Origin: Shigella phage SP18
Sequence record: GQ981382
Reading direction: 5' to 3' (one strand)
Length of the DNA stretch: 64,000 nucleotides
Position 1 is the stretch's first letter. The number at the start of each line of letters is the position of its first letter. The notes below the pieces were generated by a model, which was not told the origin of the DNA, searched no databases, and saw nothing but the letters and a program-made list of their open reading frames with translations. Below, one piece after another: positions 16,007-35,219 of the stretch. Both the position numbers and the translations under genes were made by a program.

Positions 16007-17035
16007 CTAAACTTTTGCGTACTTCGAAAGTCGCATTCTCGCCATCAATCCTTGAGCAACGTTATCGGCCATATATGATTCGATTTGTTCAGGGGTTGCC
16101 CCTTCTGATTTAACCATCTCATTTATGTCTTTCGTATGCCATGGTGCATTGTCCCAGAACATAACAGCTTCGCCAGCTTCAACGAGCTTCTTCATACGTT
16201 TAATCGTATCCGGATGTCTTGGCTCGTTGTCCATTACCCATACTCTTGTTTCAGCATAAGGAACAGCTTCCAATGCCAATGTGCCACCGGTTATCGCAAT
16301 GCTGTTAGGGATAAACAAACTATCAATTGGACCTTCCATTACCCATACGCGTTTACGCTCATCAATCTTGTCTACTCCATAGACTTTGGAAGCTTCTGGG
16401 TGAGCTTTGATTGTGATATATTTTTGTGGTGCATCTTTGCGAAGAGCTCGTCCTTGGAAAGATTCGATTTCTTTTTTGCCGTTGAAGATAGGAATAACCA
16501 AGCGTGGCTCATTCGTTTCATTCTTATACGTCCCGGGATTAACGGAGTTAACTAATGCAGGCCATTTGTTTGTAAACCATAACCGGTTCCAAACATTGCT
16601 AGGAATACACCGACTTTTTACATACTTAATTATCGGATGTGCTTCTGGTAAAGTATCGAGTCTTTCACAAAAAGCAAGCTGCTCGATAACCGGAGTTTTT
16701 TCTGGTTCTTTCGGAGTTTCTGCAACTTCATTGCGCTGTCTGCCAAAGGCATTCTCCTTATACTTCTCAACCATATATTCCCGGTGTAAATCCGGCTCAA
16801 ACTCTTTTATGTATTTGCTTATATGCGTGGAGTAGTCACAGTTAAAACATTTCACGTAAACCGCGCCATCAGACGGATTGGTATACGCCCAGAATCGAGC
16901 TTTATGTGAATCTTTCTGGGAGTCGCCACAAACTTTACATCTGCAGTTTGCCTTAAATGTGCTCCCGGTGACTTCTCTATAACGTGGTTGATACGATAAA
17001 GCTCTGACTGCAAATTCTTTATCAATATATGACAT
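16007..17035 (-). CDS. 61: DNA primase gp61
   Basis: 342 aa, same length as T4 gp61; N-terminal Cys4 zinc ribbon (CRCKVCGD...CFNCDY) and Toprim core. Confidence 0.9.
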   Translation of the reverse strand: MSYIDKEFAVRALSYQPRYREVTGSTFKANCRCKVCGDSQKDSHKARFWAYTNPSDGAVYVKCFNCDYSTHISKYIKEFEPDLHREYMVEKYKENAFGRQRNEVAETPKEPEKTPVIEQLAFCERLDTLPEAHPIIKYVKSRCIPSNVWNRLWFTNKWPALVNSVNPGTYKNETNEPRLVIPIFNGKKEIESFQGRALRKDAPQKYITIKAHPEASKVYGVDKIDERKRVWVMEGPIDSLFIPNSIAITGGTLALEAVPYAETRVWVMDNEPRHPDTIKRMKKLVEAGEAVMFWDNAPWHTKDINEMVKSEGATPEQIESYMADNVAQGLMARMRLSKYAKV

Positions 17036-17254: not shown

Positions 17255-17446
17255 TTATACAACAAAGATAGCTTTATCACCATTTGCATCAGTCACTTCA
17301 TAAGTGTCTTCATGATACAACGGAATAATCCAGGTAACACCATCATCAGCGATAACATGGATTGCTTCTTGGTCTTGCGACACGATTTCATATTCTTCAA
17401 AAAGCTGGAAGACCGAAATCTTAGAGCCCGTACACATTGCACTCAT
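17255..17446 (-). CDS. hypothetical acidic protein
   Basis: 63 aa ORF. Confidence 0.45.
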   Translation of the reverse strand: MSAMCTGSKISVFQLFEEYEIVSQDQEAIHVIADDGVTWIIPLYHEDTYEVTDANGDKAIFVV

Positions 17447-17642
17447 ATTGTTCCCTTCTTTTAATCAATTGACGATGTGCCTTTTTAAGTTTACGAATCT
17501 GACGTTTAGTCGGTCGCGCAACGTAAGCTTGTGTAGTTACTCGTCCAAAAACACCATACTTAGGCGAAGGAGTATCAATAAAGACTTCCCACTGGCAAGA
17601 GTAACTATATATTGCTTTAGAGAATTGGGTCAAAACAAACAT
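17421..17642 (-). CDS. hypothetical basic protein
   Basis: 73 aa ORF. Confidence 0.4.
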   Translation of the reverse strand: MFVLTQFSKAIYSYSCQWEVFIDTPSPKYGVFGRVTTQAYVARPTKRQIRKLKKAHRQLIKRREQYECNVYGL

Positions 17643-17643
17643 A

Positions 17644-18003
17644 TTAACCTCGCTTCATGAAGGCATTAAAAATCTGGTCATCAATATCAGTAGGCGGTTC
17701 TTGAGCTTTGACCCAAGCCCCTTCCAGAATGTCATTTGCTTCAGTAGATATCATGACCCCAATTTCAGGGTTTCCGGTTATCCATACTGCACAATCGCGG
17801 ACATTCTTTTTATCAAATGGATAACCACGATTATCTTCACAAGGCCCATTCATTGTCATAAATGAACGAGCCTTTATGATAACATCATCTTTAACGATAA
17901 TATAACCAATCGCCTGATTATAACGAGGCTCACGAAATTCATAGTGAGCATTACCATTATTATTGCTCACCAGTTCAAAATTCAGAAAATTATAATAACT
18001 CAT
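17644..18003 (-). CDS. hypothetical protein with C-terminal DDQIFNAFMKRG tail
   Basis: 119 aa; shares about 40-bp 3' coding segment with the adjacent upstream gene. Confidence 0.5.
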   Translation of the reverse strand: MSYYNFLNFELVSNNNGNAHYEFREPRYNQAIGYIIVKDDVIIKARSFMTMNGPCEDNRGYPFDKKNVRDCAVWITGNPEIGVMISTEANDILEGAWVKAQEPPTDIDDQIFNAFMKRG

Positions 18004-18004
18004 A

Positions 18005-18445
18005 TTAATCTCGCTTCATGAAGGCATTAAAAATTTGGTCGTCAACTGAATATACAGGGGTTTCCAGAAGTTTCAAAAGACTGTTTTTAATGTACTTACC
18101 CGGGATACCCATATTAACAATACTGTCATTCAATTCATTATCAGGGTTGATGTCTTTAAATTCAAACCCATCAAATTCAACCTTGTCAGGAATACCATCA
18201 GCGAAAAAATAAACCAATTGGTGCATTGTATTGCGCGAAAATAATTTAGACTTGACCGCAATAAGTTCTTGCCAATGGTTTAATTCTTTGTTAAGAAGTT
18301 TATGAGCAAACGTAATTCTATTATCACTATCAACAAGAAAATAACCCAGGTATTGAATGGGTTCGTCGCTCCAAAACATCCTGTATGCTTGTGCATTTTG
18401 ATTTTTACAACGAAGTTTTTTGATAACTAGAGTTCTGTTAATCAT
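18005..18445 (-). CDS. hypothetical protein with C-terminal DDQIFNAFMKRD tail
   Basis: start trimmed to MINRTLVIKK to abut sp; about 146 aa. Confidence 0.5.
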   Translation of the reverse strand: MINRTLVIKKLRCKNQNAQAYRMFWSDEPIQYLGYFLVDSDNRITFAHKLLNKELNHWQELIAVKSKLFSRNTMHQLVYFFADGIPDKVEFDGFEFKDINPDNELNDSIVNMGIPGKYIKNSLLKLLETPVYSVDDQIFNAFMKRD

Positions 18446-18446
18446 T

Positions 18447-18740
18447 TTATTCACCTGTAACCCATTGAACAATCTTGCTGTTGTCAAATGAAGCATCGCA
18501 ATACAGAACATAGTTATACTGCATAACATCACCAGAAGTCAATTGGTCAGATACTTCTTTAACCATATCAGGACGGTCACGTTTAGTAATATTCATGATG
18601 TCAGCATAAATCTGATGTTCAACATCAGCCTGGTCAGCAGTCATGGACCACTCGCAAAGGTCTTTATCAAGTCCAGCAGTAACTGGAGCTGTGCCACATG
18701 ATGCTACGGTAAGAATTGCTGCGATTAATAACTTTTTCAT
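18447..18740 (-). CDS. sp: Spackle periplasmic protein (superinfection exclusion; inhibitor of gp5 lysozyme)
   Basis: 97 aa with signal peptide; DKDLCEWSMTADQ and MQYNYVLYCD motifs as in T4 Sp. Confidence 0.85.
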   Translation of the reverse strand: MKKLLIAAILTVASCGTAPVTAGLDKDLCEWSMTADQADVEHQIYADIMNITKRDRPDMVKEVSDQLTSGDVMQYNYVLYCDASFDNSKIVQWVTGE

Positions 18741-18768
18741 TTCAATCTCCTCAGTAGTTGATAGGGAT

Positions 18769-18798
18769 AATATACTGCATTATCCCTATGTTGTACAC
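18769..18798 (-). promoter_or_regulatory. early promoter (GTGTAC -35, TATATT -10) upstream of sp
   Basis: recurrent cassette with leader ATCAACTACTGAGG. Confidence 0.5.
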
Positions 18799-19002
18799 TT
18801 ATTTTTCGTTAGAACGATAATCATATTCAAAAACTTTATTGTCATTAACAAAGGCTTTAACCAGCGCATTATTCACTTCTGCATACTGCACTGTAACCCA
18901 TTCAATCATATTTTTGTCACTGACATCCAGCGCGGTTTCTTTGGTAAACATATTACCATTTTCAAACCAACCAATAAACACTACGTTCTCTAATTTATAC
19001 AT
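18799..19002 (-). CDS. dmd: Dmd antitoxin-like protein (inhibitor of host RnlA/LsoA toxins)
   Basis: 67 aa; VVFIGWFENGNMFTKE...VQYAEVNNALVKAF closely resembles T4 Dmd. Confidence 0.75.
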   Translation of the reverse strand: MYKLENVVFIGWFENGNMFTKETALDVSDKNMIEWVTVQYAEVNNALVKAFVNDNKVFEYDYRSNEK

Positions 19003-19320
19003 TTAGATTTCCTCACAAAACGCCCATGCGGCGTGATAAACTGTTGCGCCTTTAGTGTCATTTAAACAAACCACGTCAACAGGTGCAATCACACGATAAA
19101 GACGGGGTTCTCCTCCATATGAGCGAGCTGCTCTTCCTGCATAGATACGCGCCAAACCAATATCTTCAGTAAAAAACACACGCCCTAAATTTTTCTTACG
19201 CCCAACTTCTGACAAAACGCCAGTTGCATCAGGAGGACAAAGCATATTTTGGATTCCAGCATTAGAGCTTGACCCATGATAATAAACTTTGTATTCTGCC
19301 TTGCAATCAATGGTTTTCAT
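19003..19320 (-). CDS. hypothetical protein
   Basis: 105 aa ORF, stop/start abutting dmd. Confidence 0.5.
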   Translation of the reverse strand: MKTIDCKAEYKVYYHGSSSNAGIQNMLCPPDATGVLSEVGRKKNLGRVFFTEDIGLARIYAGRAARSYGGEPRLYRVIAPVDVVCLNDTKGATVYHAAWAFCEEI

Positions 19321-19364
19321 TTTATTCTCCAGTAGTTGATAGGGTCATTATAACATAAGAAAAA

Positions 19365-19379
19365 GGGGCTGTAAGCCCC
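19365..19379 (-). terminator. hairpin terminator (GGGGC-tgtaa-GCCCC plus U-tract)
   Basis: inverted repeat with flanking A/T runs. Confidence 0.5.
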
Positions 19380-19388
19380 TTTGTTCAC

Positions 19389-19691
19389 TTACGCCAACTC
19401 ATAGTTGTGCATAGTCAGACAACGAATTTTCCCAGTAGTTGGGTGCATAACAGTCACACTAATTGTGTAATCATCACACACGTTAACAAAAGGTTCGGCG
19501 ATAACATATACTGCCCCACCTGCCAACAGGTATTCACGAAGAGAGCTGCGAACAGATGAAGGTTGAACATCGCTTTTGAGCTTTATTAATTTACCAGTTT
19601 GAATGCCTGATGCGATAAGAGCAGCACAGTTTTCATCACGGCGAGCGAATTGTCCAAAATAGTAACGATTCATGTCGGTTTGATTAAACAT
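19389..19691 (-). CDS. hypothetical protein
   Basis: 100 aa ORF. Confidence 0.5.
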   Translation of the reverse strand: MFNQTDMNRYYFGQFARRDENCAALIASGIQTGKLIKLKSDVQPSSVRSSLREYLLAGGAVYVIAEPFVNVCDDYTISVTVMHPTTGKIRCLTMHNYELA

Positions 19692-19770: not shown

Positions 19771-20018
19771 TATTTTAATTCATTAATTAAATGAAAATCT
19801 TGTGCATTGAAAGTAATGAAAAAATAATCATTCCCTTCAACTGAAGCATGACAGGCAACACTACACCAGCGCCTTGCTCTGTTCAAGGAGCAATCCAAAA
19901 TTTTAAAAGGCTTCAGACCAACAATGGCAGCTGTTCTTTTATTATGCTCACAAATATCAGCATACTTTTGGAGAGCTTCTTCAGATTTGAACTGGTAATG
20001 CACATTAACTAATAACAT
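19770..20018 (-). CDS. hypothetical Cys-rich protein
   Basis: 82 aa single-gene unit bounded by promoter-terminator cassettes on both sides. Confidence 0.5.
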   Translation of the reverse strand: MLLVNVHYQFKSEEALQKYADICEHNKRTAAIVGLKPFKILDCSLNRARRWCSVACHASVEGNDYFFITFNAQDFHLINELK

Positions 20019-20049
20019 TTTATTATCCTCATCAGTAGTTGATGGGATA

Positions 20050-20079
20050 ATAGTACACCCTTTTTATGGTGATGTAAAC
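20050..20079 (-). promoter_or_regulatory. early promoter (GTTTAC -35, TACTAT -10); about 55 bp near-identical to the cassette at 51.8 kb
   Basis: GGTTTACatcaccataaaaagggtgTACTATtatcccatcaactactgatgagg. Confidence 0.55.
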
Positions 20080-20092
20080 CTCTAAAATGAAA

Positions 20093-20106
20093 AAGACCCG
20101 AAGGTC
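20093..20106 (-). terminator. CUUCGG hairpin terminator downstream of gene 41
   Basis: AGACC-cgaa-GGTCT with flanking A/T runs. Confidence 0.55.
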
Positions 20107-20107
20107 T

Positions 20108-21547
20108 TTAGAATTTCATTTGAGCAGCAAGGTCGTCCAGGTCGCTCCTGTTGACCCTGGTTTGTCTATTCATTTCAGCCTGGCGATTCATCTCACCGGT
20201 GGCTTCTTTAACCGTAGGGCCTTGTTTAGGAGCTGAATCATCATCAACCTCGTACCAGCGCTGATTGCCTTTCTTAACACCCATCTTGAATTTATTATAG
20301 TAGTTCTTATCGCCATAACGAGACTTAAGCTGTTTGATTAACTGTAGACCCATTTGAGCGAATTCTTCGGTCTCAACAACACCCAACATAAAGTCAGCCG
20401 TGTGAGCAATACCAAAGGATTCTGCGATGTCAGCCATATCAATCTCAGCTGCAACGTTCGCACCCCTGGTTGTCTGCGCTGCAGTCCACAGGACCACATT
20501 TTTCTCAACAGCCAGACCACGAAGTTCTTCTGCAACCATCTTAATCAGGCCGTAACTGTTTTCGGTAAACGTTTTCAGTCTTGAGCTTGCACAGATTGCC
20601 AGGTAGTCAACAATAATCACATCCGGCACAAATCCTTGCTTCAGTTTGTATTCATTCAGCAATGCACGGAAGGTATCCGCATGAGCACCGCCAGTTGGAT
20701 ATTGTTTTATCTTCAGAGTCCCAAGAGTCCCGGAAGCACGCCATTTTTCCATCTTAGCTTTATATTCCGCCCATGATATATGACCTTCATCAATATCATC
20801 CAGAGATACATCCAGCAAGTTGGCATCAATACGTTTGGCACATACTTCTTCAGCCATTTCCATGCTTATATAAAGCACATTATGACCAGTCTGAAGATAG
20901 TCAGCCGCTAACGAACAAAGTCCAAGGGATTTGCCGACGTTCGTCCCGGCCAGTAAAACGTTCTCTGTACCGTACTCAACCCCACCCTTTGTGATTTTAT
21001 TCAGGATGTTAATACGGAACGGAACCTTCTTCGATTTGTTCAGATAAGTCTGGAATCGAGCTTCGTAATCGTTTAACCAGTCATGGCCCAAAGCGGAGTC
21101 AAAACAGATAGACAATGCGTCGCGCATGATGTCGGGGATAGCACCAATATCCGGGATTCGTTTATCACGTTTATCTTTCGGAAGTTCGGCATTACTCTGG
21201 ATTTCGATAATCCTGGATGTGGCATTGAACATCGCAGACTTCTGCACATACTTCTCGGTTTCTTTAACCAACCATTCCTGGTCTTCTGGAGTATCGGCCA
21301 GGACTCCTAAGAGTTTCTTTGTGCCTTCATATTCGACTTCAGAAAGGTCAGAACTGTCGAGCGCGATATCAAGTGCAGTCTTAGTTGGTACCGCTTGATA
21401 TTCTTTTACGTGTTCGTTAATCGTATTAAAAAGAGTCTTCGCGGGACCCTTTTCAAAATATGTGTTATTCAGATACGGCCAGACTTTAACAAAATATTCC
21501 TTGTTAAAGAGTAGCTGGGATAAAATAGTTTCTACCACTTCCACCAC
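20108..21547 (-). CDS. 41: replicative DNA helicase gp41 (DnaB-like)
   Basis: 479 aa; strong identity to T4 gp41 throughout (Walker A GTNVGKS, LYISMEMAEEVCAKRIDAN). Confidence 0.95.
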   Translation of the reverse strand: MVEVVETILSQLLFNKEYFVKVWPYLNNTYFEKGPAKTLFNTINEHVKEYQAVPTKTALDIALDSSDLSEVEYEGTKKLLGVLADTPEDQEWLVKETEKYVQKSAMFNATSRIIEIQSNAELPKDKRDKRIPDIGAIPDIMRDALSICFDSALGHDWLNDYEARFQTYLNKSKKVPFRINILNKITKGGVEYGTENVLLAGTNVGKSLGLCSLAADYLQTGHNVLYISMEMAEEVCAKRIDANLLDVSLDDIDEGHISWAEYKAKMEKWRASGTLGTLKIKQYPTGGAHADTFRALLNEYKLKQGFVPDVIIVDYLAICASSRLKTFTENSYGLIKMVAEELRGLAVEKNVVLWTAAQTTRGANVAAEIDMADIAESFGIAHTADFMLGVVETEEFAQMGLQLIKQLKSRYGDKNYYNKFKMGVKKGNQRWYEVDDDSAPKQGPTVKEATGEMNRQAEMNRQTRVNRSDLDDLAAQMKF

Positions 21548-24095: not shown

Positions 24096-26810
24096 TTAAA
24101 AGTCAAACATATCAAAAAGAGTTGCTTTCTTTTCGTAATCAACCTTAGCTGCTTCAGAGAAACCTGTTAATGGCTTAACAAAAGTCTTCTGGAACAGTGT
24201 GTTGTAGTCCATCCACTGCAAGACTTGGTCACGAATTTCAATCGGGAGTTCAATCCCTGACGGCCATGCAATCACAGTTTCACCAAACGGGTTGCCGACT
24301 TTAAGAGGAAGTACATACACCTTTTCCCCTTCCATGATTTGCGGAACAGTCTTCAGACCTTTAGTTGCACGCATATATGCAAGCACACCTTTGATATGAG
24401 CCGGACACTTAAATCCAGGGAAACCGCCTTCATTATATTTCTGGATGTTGTTAACCGATGATACACCTGCGATGGTCATGTAGTTAAGCTCATTAAATTC
24501 CTTATTGAATTCCTTGAAGTATGTCTGCAGAGATTCTTCACCTTCTTGCAGCATACGGCGGATACATTCTTTCAGAGCTTTCTGACATGCCTTTGGAGTA
24601 CTCGACTTTTGAGTTTCCAGACCCATGATTTTCAGTTTCGGAACCGCATATCGTGTGCCTTCCATATCGTACACGTTCAGCGCATAACGCTTCTTCGCCG
24701 TCCAGAATCCACCCACACCTTTAGAACCCAGCGGAGGACATGCAATCGCCTCACGGTCCATAAACATAAGGTGCTGTTTGTTGTTCATGTATTCAGCCAG
24801 CTCACGGAAAGCTTTATCGATTGCCGGTTCCAGACGGTCTTTCGCAAACTTGTCCATGAAGTCAACCAGGTGGTTTGTATCACGGAATTTAGATTCGCCA
24901 CCAACCTTTTTAATCAGGTTATCGCACTGGATATAAATGGAGTCAGTATCGCCATAGAACACATAAGTTTCACCGCTTGTCCCACAAACACTATCGAAGT
25001 ATTCGTTAACTTTACGCTCAATCCACTGCAATGCAAGTTGTCCGAAAGATGTAATCGCGGTTGCATTTCGCAGGTCAAAGTAACGGAACCAGATATTACC
25101 CAGAGCGCCATAACAACTGTTGATAAGCAGTTTACGGTTAATCTGTGCGGTCATGCCTGCAACTTCTTCCATCTGCGCTTTGTACAACATACCATTCAGA
25201 ACTGTTTGATTCAGACCATGTAAGGTTGTTTTCATATTGTCATCAAAGTCATGACGATAATCAACTTCAGGCTCGGTTGTACCAGTTCCTGGATTACGCA
25301 GAGCTTCCTTAATCAGTTCACCATTACGTTGAGCCGCAAGCATATAGCCTTTGTGCTCTTTACGCTGATTAAACACCTTGGTGACTTCTGTCGGAATAAT
25401 ACCCGCAACATCTTTAAAATACATCATACCATTTGGAGCACAACTAAATGTATCAGATGGACGGTCAGCAGTTCCTGCGATGTATTCGTACATCGGCGCT
25501 GGTGCAAATGACCCGGCAATCGTTTCTGGACTGATGTTAATCTGTCGGATGATGCTCGGATACAGAGATGTTAAGTCACAGCTCATAACGTATTTGTATG
25601 CGTTCGGAATCGGTTCCTTAACAAATGCACCAGGGAACGATTGGCGAACATGTGATTTGGTTTCCGGAATGACTTTGTTTTGAGTCTTCAGGCTGTTAAA
25701 GATAATCGCATCCCAAGTTTTGATTGGGCTGAATACAGACTGAATCTGCATTTTTGCATAATAACCCATTGACTGGCTCAGGTTAATAAACTGCCGCTTA
25801 CGGTCAATCTGCACAACACGATAAACGTCGATGATGTTATAAGAAATATACCGCTGGTGATTTGATTCACGCAGTTTAGAAATCGGGCCATCATACGGGA
25901 GTTTACCAACACCCAGTTCAGATTCCGCAACATAATCCAACGAATAAGACGGTTGGTTTGTGAAGCTGAACTTTTTATACAGGTCCAGATAATCCAGAAC
26001 AGAGATACCCAGAATCTGAATGATTTCTTGTTCTTCACCAAAGCCGTTGTTAATGACTTTAACTTTTGTACGACGATGTGGGCTCAGACGTTTTGCCGTA
26101 GCTTCACCAAATACATTTTTAAGGCGGTTGTAGATATATGGAATATCAAACTTCTCGATGTTCCAACCAGTTAACATAACCGGAGTTTTCTCGTTCCAGA
26201 ATACCAAATACTGCTGGAGCATTTCTTCTTCTGAATCGAAAGCCATATAAACAATTTTTTCCAGGATTTCTTCCGGGACTTCATCACCACCATCTTCCTG
26301 CAGCTTAGCAGCAATATCAATAGACCATTGCTCCACAGTGGCGTATGGTGAGCCCAAAAGGTCAAAGACATAGAATTTATCGTCTACCGAATCATAGTGC
26401 GTCAGGGCATCAATAGGGTGACGTGCTTCAGACGGTTCAGGAAACCCATCAGGAGATGTCACCTCGATATCGAAGTTAGCAACACGGATTTTACTTGAAT
26501 CATATTTGATTTCGTGTGGGTAACGGTCGGACAAGTATGCGAGTTTAAAGTCGTCCATACCCATAGCTTCGAGACCCATGTCATTCATTCGCTTCATCCA
26601 CTGGGATGCATCACGCATGGAATCGAATTCTTTTTTCACACAACCTTTATTATAGATGTCTGTATACTTTGCAGCTTGGTCTTCGCGGGCGTGCATAAAC
26701 AAGCATGGAGCATAAGGGATTTCACGAACACGTTCATGACCATTCTTGTCAATATATCGTTCGAGCAGATTGTCACCGATTTGTTCGATAGTTAAATAAA
26801 ATTCTTGCAT
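24096..26810 (-). CDS. 43: DNA polymerase gp43 (family B, 3'-5' exonuclease plus polymerase)
   Basis: 904 aa; exo motifs FDIEV and YNIIDV, polymerase motifs DLTSLYPSII, KILINSCYG, YGDTDS; RB69-like by memory. Confidence 0.95.
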   Translation of the reverse strand: MQEFYLTIEQIGDNLLERYIDKNGHERVREIPYAPCLFMHAREDQAAKYTDIYNKGCVKKEFDSMRDASQWMKRMNDMGLEAMGMDDFKLAYLSDRYPHEIKYDSSKIRVANFDIEVTSPDGFPEPSEARHPIDALTHYDSVDDKFYVFDLLGSPYATVEQWSIDIAAKLQEDGGDEVPEEILEKIVYMAFDSEEEMLQQYLVFWNEKTPVMLTGWNIEKFDIPYIYNRLKNVFGEATAKRLSPHRRTKVKVINNGFGEEQEIIQILGISVLDYLDLYKKFSFTNQPSYSLDYVAESELGVGKLPYDGPISKLRESNHQRYISYNIIDVYRVVQIDRKRQFINLSQSMGYYAKMQIQSVFSPIKTWDAIIFNSLKTQNKVIPETKSHVRQSFPGAFVKEPIPNAYKYVMSCDLTSLYPSIIRQINISPETIAGSFAPAPMYEYIAGTADRPSDTFSCAPNGMMYFKDVAGIIPTEVTKVFNQRKEHKGYMLAAQRNGELIKEALRNPGTGTTEPEVDYRHDFDDNMKTTLHGLNQTVLNGMLYKAQMEEVAGMTAQINRKLLINSCYGALGNIWFRYFDLRNATAITSFGQLALQWIERKVNEYFDSVCGTSGETYVFYGDTDSIYIQCDNLIKKVGGESKFRDTNHLVDFMDKFAKDRLEPAIDKAFRELAEYMNNKQHLMFMDREAIACPPLGSKGVGGFWTAKKRYALNVYDMEGTRYAVPKLKIMGLETQKSSTPKACQKALKECIRRMLQEGEESLQTYFKEFNKEFNELNYMTIAGVSSVNNIQKYNEGGFPGFKCPAHIKGVLAYMRATKGLKTVPQIMEGEKVYVLPLKVGNPFGETVIAWPSGIELPIEIRDQVLQWMDYNTLFQKTFVKPLTGFSEAAKVDYEKKATLFDMFDF

Positions 26811-34444: not shown

Positions 34445-34696
34445 TTAATCCTTGGGAGTTAACTCAATTGTAAAATATAGATTAGCATTATCCACATGAT
34501 AACGGTAATCAACGTTATTATCCGGTGAAGTAAATTCCAGATTCCGGACGTTTAAAGGGTCGATATCAATTGGAAGACCTTTTATGTCTCGCAGATAAAG
34601 TTTAATGAAATATGGGAGCGCAGTAAAGTCTTCCTCGATTTTATCTAAAAAATCGGTAATATCAAATTGATGTTTCATATAAAAAATCCAAATCAC
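34445..34696 (-). CDS. hypothetical protein
   Basis: 83 aa ORF abutting gene 55. Confidence 0.45.
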
Positions 34697-35219
34697 CTTC
34701 TTTATCTTTGGCGCTCTTATCAGACCCTGGCGCTTTAACTAAAGAGGATTCGTACTGTGTCATTTTGTCATAGATGTCCTGGATAAATGTTTCATCAGCC
34801 AGAGCCACCATATCGTCATCACGTGAATCGTATACGTTATGGACGAAGTAGCTATATTTCTTTGCCATTTCTTTACGTTCTTTTTTGATACGCTGAACGA
34901 AAGCATTGAAGCAAGCCATTGTTATGTAAGCATGTGGATTATCGTATTTTGTTTCGTCGAAGTTGTGAAGACCTTTTATTGCGGCCTCAATTCCGTCTGC
35001 TATCATTTCTTGCTTCCAGGATTGGGTATATCCGGAGAAGTTGAAACGTTTGCTAAGACCTTCGGCTATAAGCATAATCGCCAGACCAATAACATCGTTC
35101 TGGCGAATAATTTTGTTCGGGTCGGTGTTCGCATTCAGCTTCTGTTTCCACTCCGAAATAGCTTTCAAAAGCTCTTTATTATTTACATAGTTATTCTTGG
35201 TTAATTTAATTTCGTTCAT
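34662..35219 (-). CDS. 55: late-transcription sigma factor gp55
   Basis: 185 aa, same length as T4 gp55; position downstream of 47 region. Confidence 0.8.

Follow-up and report, generated by a model that had tools for sequence, protein, structure and literature searches.

Why do two neighbouring genes of a T-even phage end in the same short peptide, when the remaining parts of their products look dissimilar? The question is raised by a locus in a stretch of 64,000 nucleotides from Shigella phage SP18 (GQ981382), hereafter called the window. In this stretch all of the genes from the helicase gene 41 to the primase gene 61 are encoded on the minus strand, and two of them, ORF146 and ORF119, lie between the spackle gene (sp) and a TifA-like gene (Table 1). 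The source is a T-even phage, of Dhakavirus/VR20 type; phages TH54, 212, P479 and VR20 match a 1.8-kb query from the window at 95-98% identity. A sequence-only reading of the window had pointed out that the two genes, of 119 and 146 codons, share a C-terminal tail and are located immediately downstream of spackle in the segment between 41 and 61, and both observations are borne out. It had also regarded the tail as one grafted onto different proteins, which pointed either to a common interaction or targeting module or to recombination between paralogs. How did the two tails come to be alike, what keeps them alike, and what might they do?

ORF146 ends in SVDDQIFNAFMKRD and ORF119 in DIDDQIFNAFMKRG, each directly followed by the stop codon. 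Alignment of the two 3′ regions gives a direct repeat of 45 nucleotides, present as one pair in the window with 42 of the 45 positions (93%) identical, which takes in the last 12 or so codons with their stop and, beyond it, the ATG that starts the following gene. Over the final 14 codons the two genes differ at 7 of 42 nucleotides; the 3′ 16 nucleotides (GCCTTCATGAAGCGAG) are common to both and the upstream part differs, and homogenisation of the tails in the window is partial. The degenerate pattern FNAFM[KN]R is found at two sites in the 64-kb window, which are the two tails, against 0.10 expected from shuffled sequences. The tail is not a frame artefact with the real stop lying upstream, a possibility that the sequence-only reading had considered: the motif ends at the same stop in full-length homologues, of which ORF119 has them in 331 phage records and ORF146 in 84 (INPHARED record counts; AdfA, introduced below, has 487).

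The junctions between the genes are tight. The ATG of ORF146 at 18445, with AGGTGA as its Shine-Dalgarno sequence, overlaps the stop codon of spackle as TAAAATG, and the TifA-like gene starts in the TAATATG that follows the tail of ORF119. In all of the tails the stop codon abuts the next ATG, as TAATATG, TGATATG or TAAAATG, and the last two codons ([AC]GAGGT) contain a GAGG Shine-Dalgarno sequence about 5 nucleotides 5′ of that ATG. As these two codons have this role, the terminal [RK][GD] of the tail is probably constrained by it.

Table 1. Features of the window around the pair and the two C-termini used for comparison (positions within the 64,000 nucleotides)
Feature	Position	Strand	Description
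helicase gene 41	20108-21547	-	
dmd	18799-19002	-	anti-RnlA antitoxin, just upstream of sp; PF17587, E 1e-20; phrog_2102
sp (spackle)	18447-18740	-	conserved upstream anchor, directly 5′ of ORF146; PF25676, E 2e-43
ORF146	18005-18445	-	146 aa; phrog_8539; putative single-domain AdfA-like protein, in the slot of T4 adfA/61.2
tail 1	18008-18049	-	final 14 codons of ORF146 (SVDDQIFNAFMKRD); last two codons are the Shine-Dalgarno sequence for ORF119
direct repeat, copy B	18001-18045	.	45 nt: ORF119 ATG, ORF146 stop, last ~12 codons of ORF146
ORF119	17644-18003	-	119 aa; phrog_4122; putative second AdfA-like cassette
tail 2	17647-17688	-	final 14 codons of ORF119 (DIDDQIFNAFMKRG); last two codons, CGAGGT, are the Shine-Dalgarno sequence for the TifA-like gene
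direct repeat, copy A	17640-17684	.	45 nt: TifA-like gene ATG, ORF119 stop, last ~12 codons of ORF119
TifA-like gene	17421-17642	-	73 aa; DUF7279; PF23945
63-aa gene and 55-aa 61.1-like gene		-	between the 73-aa TifA-like gene and primase gene 61
primase gene 61	16007-17035	-	
gp43 C-terminus	24096-24218	-	
gp55 C-terminus	34662-34784	-	

Does the peptide occur on other proteins? A search of related phages, as the sequence-only reading had proposed, finds it at the C-terminus of T4 gp61.2 (AdfA), which ends in SIDDQIFNAFMNRG followed by the TAATATG of gene 61.1. The tail of ORF119 matches positions 198-211, the last 14, of the profile PF23813 ('Anti-DarT factor A') and also the C-termini of phrog_3781 and phrog_8539. 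The primers for adfA of RB69 encode the ending IFNAFMNRG (PMC11257639). The motif is invariant in the family alignments of ORF119 (8 clusters), ORF146 (14 aligned) and AdfA (12 aligned), and the consensus of the tails is S[IV]DDQIFNAFM[NK][RK][GD]. By these alignments, the peptide is the hallmark of the AdfA (gp61.2) family, whose proteins otherwise evolve fast, and ORF146 and ORF119 would end alike because both are distant relatives of AdfA in which the C-terminal peptide of the family has been kept.

A 60-nucleotide query of the tail finds 751 places in 555 phage records, nearly all of which are named as enterobacterial phages. The tail-bearing loci examined are all T-even-like, with the tail only in the gene or genes just downstream of spackle. 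A degenerate DNA pattern for DDQIFNAFM is found in only 16 contigs of IMG/VR, all of them T-even and all at this locus, and has zero matches in the genomes of 185,579 bacterial and archaeal species. Among 1.84 billion representative proteins, a tail profile matches the ORF146 and ORF119 families and a single 1017-aa protein, which has VDDLIANDV repeats and is rejected as spurious; the profile, made with two sequences, missed AdfA, probably by favouring K-R. PDB sequence searches with the 31-aa C-terminal module described below and with the AdfA profile gave no relevant match.

Are the bodies in front of the tail also related? They had been called dissimilar, and at the level of BLASTP they are: the tail alone aligns between ORF146 and ORF119. 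In hhalign, the full ORF119 family also aligns with the ORF146 and AdfA families by the tail alone; ORF146 and AdfA at full length give a probability of 97.5%, with residues 14-146 of ORF146 colinear with 108-208 of AdfA. Residual similarity of the bodies emerges in hhalign with the tails removed and with richer alignments, for which 120 column shuffles with a mean score of about 12 served as the null. ORF119 scores 25.1 against ORF146 (null maximum, 23.9) and 22.1 against the N-terminal half of AdfA (20.0), and ORF146 scores 22.4 against the C-terminal half of AdfA (17.6), so that for each of the three family pairs none of the 120 shuffles reaches the observed score, the significance being low (P about 1e-3, probabilities 6-27%). 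The body alignments centre on a common strand motif, G[YG]hhVKDxxIhxA, at colinear positions. AlphaFold2 (AF2) models of ORF146 (pLDDT 63) and ORF119 (pLDDT 72) have the same order of elements, b1-b4 (long), a short b5, a helix and b6, and both end in a linker of low pLDDT and a tail helix of low confidence. When the BFVD models are searched with Foldseek, the ORF119 model matches an ORF146-family protein of VR25 (E 7e-5, TM 0.59) and a 157-aa protein of phage fPS-65 (E 9e-5). The ORF146 model matches the same 157-aa protein (E 2e-5), which represents residues 52-208 of an AdfA whose gene is broken by an amber codon, and has no reciprocal match to the ORF119 family in BFVD. The body profiles, the predicted topology and the Foldseek cross-matches together suggest, with moderate confidence, that the ORF146, ORF119 and AdfA bodies are remote homologues and that the pair consists of diverged paralogues.

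The source of the 157-aa protein is itself unusual. In Yersinia phage fPS-65 (LR215724.1, ~1917-2543), the reading frame of adfA contains a TAG at about codon 18, and the annotated protein begins at an internal Met; the gene is either a pseudogene or one for a truncated AdfA.

How do one-domain proteins compare with AdfA of 208-216 aa? The N- and C-terminal halves of T4 AdfA (encoded at 2133-2759 of its locus) align with each other in hhalign (P 5e-4) around FVFVKNNEIIAVA and GGIFVKDNRITRI, and AdfA thus appears, from this alignment, to be an internal duplication with two domain copies. ORF146 and ORF119, of 146 and 119 aa, lack such a two-domain body and have one beta-rich domain each in the AF2 models. 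PF23813 scores ORF119 at 21.7 bits, below the gathering cutoff of 27 and by the tail only, and has no match to ORF146 at E ≤ 0.01. It was considered that the pair could be a split AdfA. This was rejected, as the order is wrong (ORF146, which resembles the C-terminal half, stands first) and in other genomes the two families are found alongside full-length AdfA or in its place. An equivalence of His164, the specificity residue of AdfA, with a His in ORF146 was dropped as well, the alignment being off by one.

The arrangement of the locus was surveyed in about 24 loci (19 sp-anchored loci, T4 and five further records). In the T4 type, spackle is followed by adfA and 61.1; two loci (L026, L034) have an ORF119-like gene between adfA and 61.1, and a third (L029) has the ORF119-like gene alone between sp and 61.1. 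In the RB69 type, adfA is followed by a gene for a 65-aa protein. In the JS98 type, ORF146 is followed by the TifA-like gene, and in the window, VR20, VR25 and a Logan contig (SRR8048120; L041) ORF119 is inserted between these two. MN01 has ORF146, ORF119 and a 63-aa gene, and three loci (L030-32) have a 69-aa gene without the tail. The tandem with two tails is a common arrangement. AdfA and ORF146 occur together in none of the loci examined; ORF146 begins at the stop codon of spackle like 61.2 in T4, and ORF119 comes after ORF146 as the ORF119-like gene comes after adfA in L026 and L034. From these architectures and the lack of co-occurrence, ORF146 is the positional equivalent of adfA, and ORF119 is an optional second cassette. 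ORF119 is 43-45% identical (E 1e-27) to T4-like proteins of 118 or 119 aa, and by this similarity the gene of 118-119 codons that follows adfA in many Tequatrovirus genomes is a true orthologue of ORF119.

What keeps the tail constant? Among 28 tails, drawn from five or more lineages, the nine codons that encode the core DDQIFNAFM have zero nonsynonymous changes, and synonymous variants occur at all 8 of those that are degenerate. Between phage groups, pS of the tail is 0.4-0.8 as compared with 0.6-0.7 for spackle in the same genome pairs, in which pN of spackle is 0.07-0.25. Within the Logan contig, 9 of the 42 nucleotides differ between the two tails, across six synonymous codons, and the core peptides encoded are identical. 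Since the core is free of amino-acid changes and its synonymous sites vary at about the rate of spackle, selection acts on the peptide: the tail is under strict purifying selection as a peptide, not as DNA.

This bears on the view that the tail serves first of all as a joint for recombination of the DNA, comparable to the repeated cassettes of T4 hyperplastic regions and retained for swapping and stacking gene cassettes, with the peptide incidental. Several genomes do carry marks of DNA exchange at the tails. VR26 (L023) is VR25 (L022) minus exactly the ORF119 cassette; in MN01 an ORF119-like tail is joined directly to a different downstream gene by the same TAATATG; and rare variants are common to both tails of one genome, namely GAT at D-11, seen in L026 alone and in both of its tails, and the Lys codon AAA at position -2 in Escherichia phage vB_Eco_CP (L034), in which three tails are identical at 42 of 42 nucleotides. 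In the Logan contig the first ~110 residues of the ORF146-like protein are only ~34% identical to ORF146 of the window, in contrast to the last 31 residues (KYIKNSLLKILETPVYSVDDQIFNAFM...), which are near-identical, with ~90% DNA identity over the last 93 nucleotides. In addition, T4 recombines at microhomologies of 6-10 bp in this same region (PMC9391042). Gain and loss of cassettes, a solo tail and shared rare variants thus testify to DNA exchange at the tails in some genomes, and the recombination between paralogs suggested by the sequence-only reading has partial support from homogenised tails, flush presence or absence of the cassette and the solo tail in several genomes. With about 40 nucleotides of near-identical DNA in tandem, the tails are substrates for recombination, and in some genomes this accounts for ORF119 being gained or lost, for mosaic bodies and for homogenised tails. 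However, as the sole cause of the conservation the joint is largely refuted and we regard it as unlikely, since the synonymous divergence of the tail between groups equals that of spackle, so that the DNA is not specially conserved, and core peptides are identical in spite of the 9 (Logan contig) and 7 (window) differences in 42 nucleotides, with every degenerate codon varying. Given conservation at the level of the peptide, recombination is a consequence of the repeat rather than the reason for its conservation.

The tail could alternatively be kept by its overlap with the translation-initiation region of the next gene, through dual coding or translational coupling, and not for its peptide; the abutting stop and start codons and the GAGG within the last two codons would fit. 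This is hardly credible, because the core lies 16-42 nucleotides upstream of the start with its synonymous sites varying freely, because the genes downstream differ (61.1, ORF119, TifA-like, 63/65-aa gene), and because the codons bearing the Shine-Dalgarno sequence are the least conserved of the tail (R/K, G/D; GAGAT in ORF146). As for the graft proposed by the sequence-only reading, two unrelated proteins would each have gained a portable tail by recombination resembling exon shuffling. The tail-only alignments by BLASTP and by hhalign of the full ORF119 family speak for it, as does the boundary in the Logan contig, where bodies seem exchangeable upstream of the conserved C-terminal module. 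It is contradicted by body-only scores above all shuffled controls in three family pairs, by the colinear strand motif, and by the same predicted topology and the Foldseek cross-matches; moreover, all members occupy one locus. A graft is thus very improbable, and the tail is better described as the invariant C-terminus of the AdfA family.

Further observations were made on the tails and their surroundings. In vB_Eco_CP (OZ034683.1, ~2544-2603), a tandem duplicate of ~60 nucleotides consisting of the ORF119-like tail and TAATATG forms a third, body-less copy of the tail between the ORF119-like gene and 61.1, which could be either a recombination footprint or an assembly artefact. The ORF146-like gene of the Logan contig (560-991) has a sharp mosaic boundary, and by this boundary the conserved C-terminal module of the ORF146 family would be ~31 aa, longer than the shared tail of 12-14 aa. 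Concerted evolution was considered as a general rule and not retained: it is seen in L034, L015 and L026, absent in the Logan contig and weak in the window.

In our preferred explanation, ORF146 and ORF119 are probably tandem, diverged members of the AdfA superfamily in a dmd-sp-adfA-tifA island, each made of a body, a linker and an invariant tail. Each protein would have a beta-rich body that evolves fast and measures about 100 residues, a linker of variable length and an invariant C-terminal peptide. By analogy with AdfA, the variable bodies may recognise different host toxins or toxin variants, so that ORF146 and ORF119 would be inhibitors of toxins or defence with their specificity in the bodies. 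The tail would give all members one common function, most likely as a short, tethered interaction peptide, which would fold against either a conserved partner or a conserved target surface; the last two codons of the tail double as the ribosome-binding site for the gene that follows. The region before the tail, which has indels in the ORF119 and AdfA family alignments and low AF2 confidence, fits a flexible tether; with this and the strict purifying selection on the peptide, the common interaction or targeting module proposed by the sequence-only reading is plausible. The tail might instead be a structural element that AF2 does not pack. An amphipathic-helix reading of the tail was dropped, as its hydrophobic moment is no different from that of shuffled sequences.

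To our knowledge, few phage inhibitors of DarT other than AdfA have been described. AdfA binds DarT1, the binding being switched on by a one-residue change in its body (R164H); for T4 AdfA, deletion is without phenotype against DarTG1, and it may target another DarT variant (PMC11257639). With AdfA (T4 gp61.2, PF23813) the pair has in common the identical C-terminal peptide and stop/start junction, the slot directly downstream of spackle between 41 and 61 among early genes in the anti-toxin island, and a weak but reproducible similarity of the bodies, ORF146 resembling the C-terminal and ORF119 the N-terminal half. It differs in that AdfA apparently has two domain copies and each member of the pair one, and in that the bodies of the pair, known here from sequence and models, fall under the Pfam threshold. 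The feature is real and widespread, and consists of single-domain AdfA-like paralogues with the AdfA tail; it is not a new type of system. The tail is common to AdfA and two uncharacterised families frequent in T-even phages, and as an element open to deletion, to swapping and to use as bait it offers a handle on AdfA function. ORF146 and ORF119 would be two new candidate anti-toxin or anti-defence proteins of the T-even anti-TA island, and the locus is a small model in which a conserved coding repeat also drives gain, loss and mosaicism of accessory genes.

Tethered docking peptides at C-termini include the tails by which gp43 and gp55 bind the clamp, the C-terminal tip of SSB and the tail of SspB that binds ClpX. 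The proteins considered here resemble them in architecture, with a specific body joined through a flexible, variable linker to a C-terminal peptide that is short and invariant. In the window, gp43 ends in KKATLFDMFDF, as in RB69, and gp55 in LDFLYETSI. The tail (QIFNAFM) shares with the clamp-binding tail of gp43 only the five-residue pattern [LI]F[DN]xF, and the AdfA-family tail, in contrast to the docking peptides, has three further residues after the hydrophobic motif. DarT-type toxins attack single-stranded DNA at replication forks. The tail could be a portable docking peptide that tethers the toxin-binding bodies of AdfA, ORF146 and ORF119 to one conserved partner, for which the gp45 clamp is a candidate, as IFNAF resembles LFDMF of the phage's own gp43 C-terminus; or else it could be a universal plug for the active site of a toxin family. 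We consider this more specific proposal quite unlikely; if true, proteins with the docking peptide would form a new class of anti-toxin adaptors localised to the fork.

The small T4 proteins Dmd (gp61.5) and TifA (gp61.4) inhibit the host toxins RnlA/LsoA and ToxN, respectively. In the window, their homologues lie on either side of the pair, as neighbours within one early region, and like the pair they are small, fast-evolving and variably present among T-even phages; they differ from it in having no sequence relationship to the pair and no tail. The 73-aa DUF7279 protein is a homologue of T4 TifA (gp61.4), the ToxN inhibitor, with 39% identity over 62 aa (E 1e-13). The gene tifA is located between dmd and sp in T4; in the window this interval is gene-free, the homologue being found instead downstream of the two AdfA-like genes. 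The region of dmd, tifA and adfA has been called an anti-TA island (PMC9391042).

An early-promoter-like site and a conserved leader are present 5′ of sp at 18741-18812, and spackle is probably the first gene of an early transcript, of which ORF146 and ORF119 would also be part. Arbiol, Comeau and Krisch are said to have proposed in 2010 that repeated PeSL cassettes serve modular shuffling in the hyperplastic regions of T4-type phages. The tail repeat is similar in being a short repeat that bounds variable genes in a plastic region, with gain and loss of cassettes at the repeat. It differs from PeSLs, which are intergenic and consist of a promoter and a stem-loop: in place of an intergenic early promoter and stem-loop at the borders, it lies inside coding DNA and the stop/start junction and is without a shared promoter, its conservation being at the level of the peptide.

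Promoter/leader repeats similar to PeSLs are found near the tail locus as a feature separate from the tail repeat. Three intergenic regions on the minus strand, at 18741-18812, 19318-19392 and 20016-20112, have in common an early-promoter-like site (GTTTACA/TGTACA, 17 nucleotides, TATAAT-like) and the conserved leader CCCTATCAACTACTGAGGAG before the ATG. They are located upstream of sp, upstream of a 105-aa gene and downstream of 41, respectively, and terminator-like hairpins precede two of the three. In this form they look like the repeated promoter/stem-loop cassettes of the T4 hyperplastic regions.
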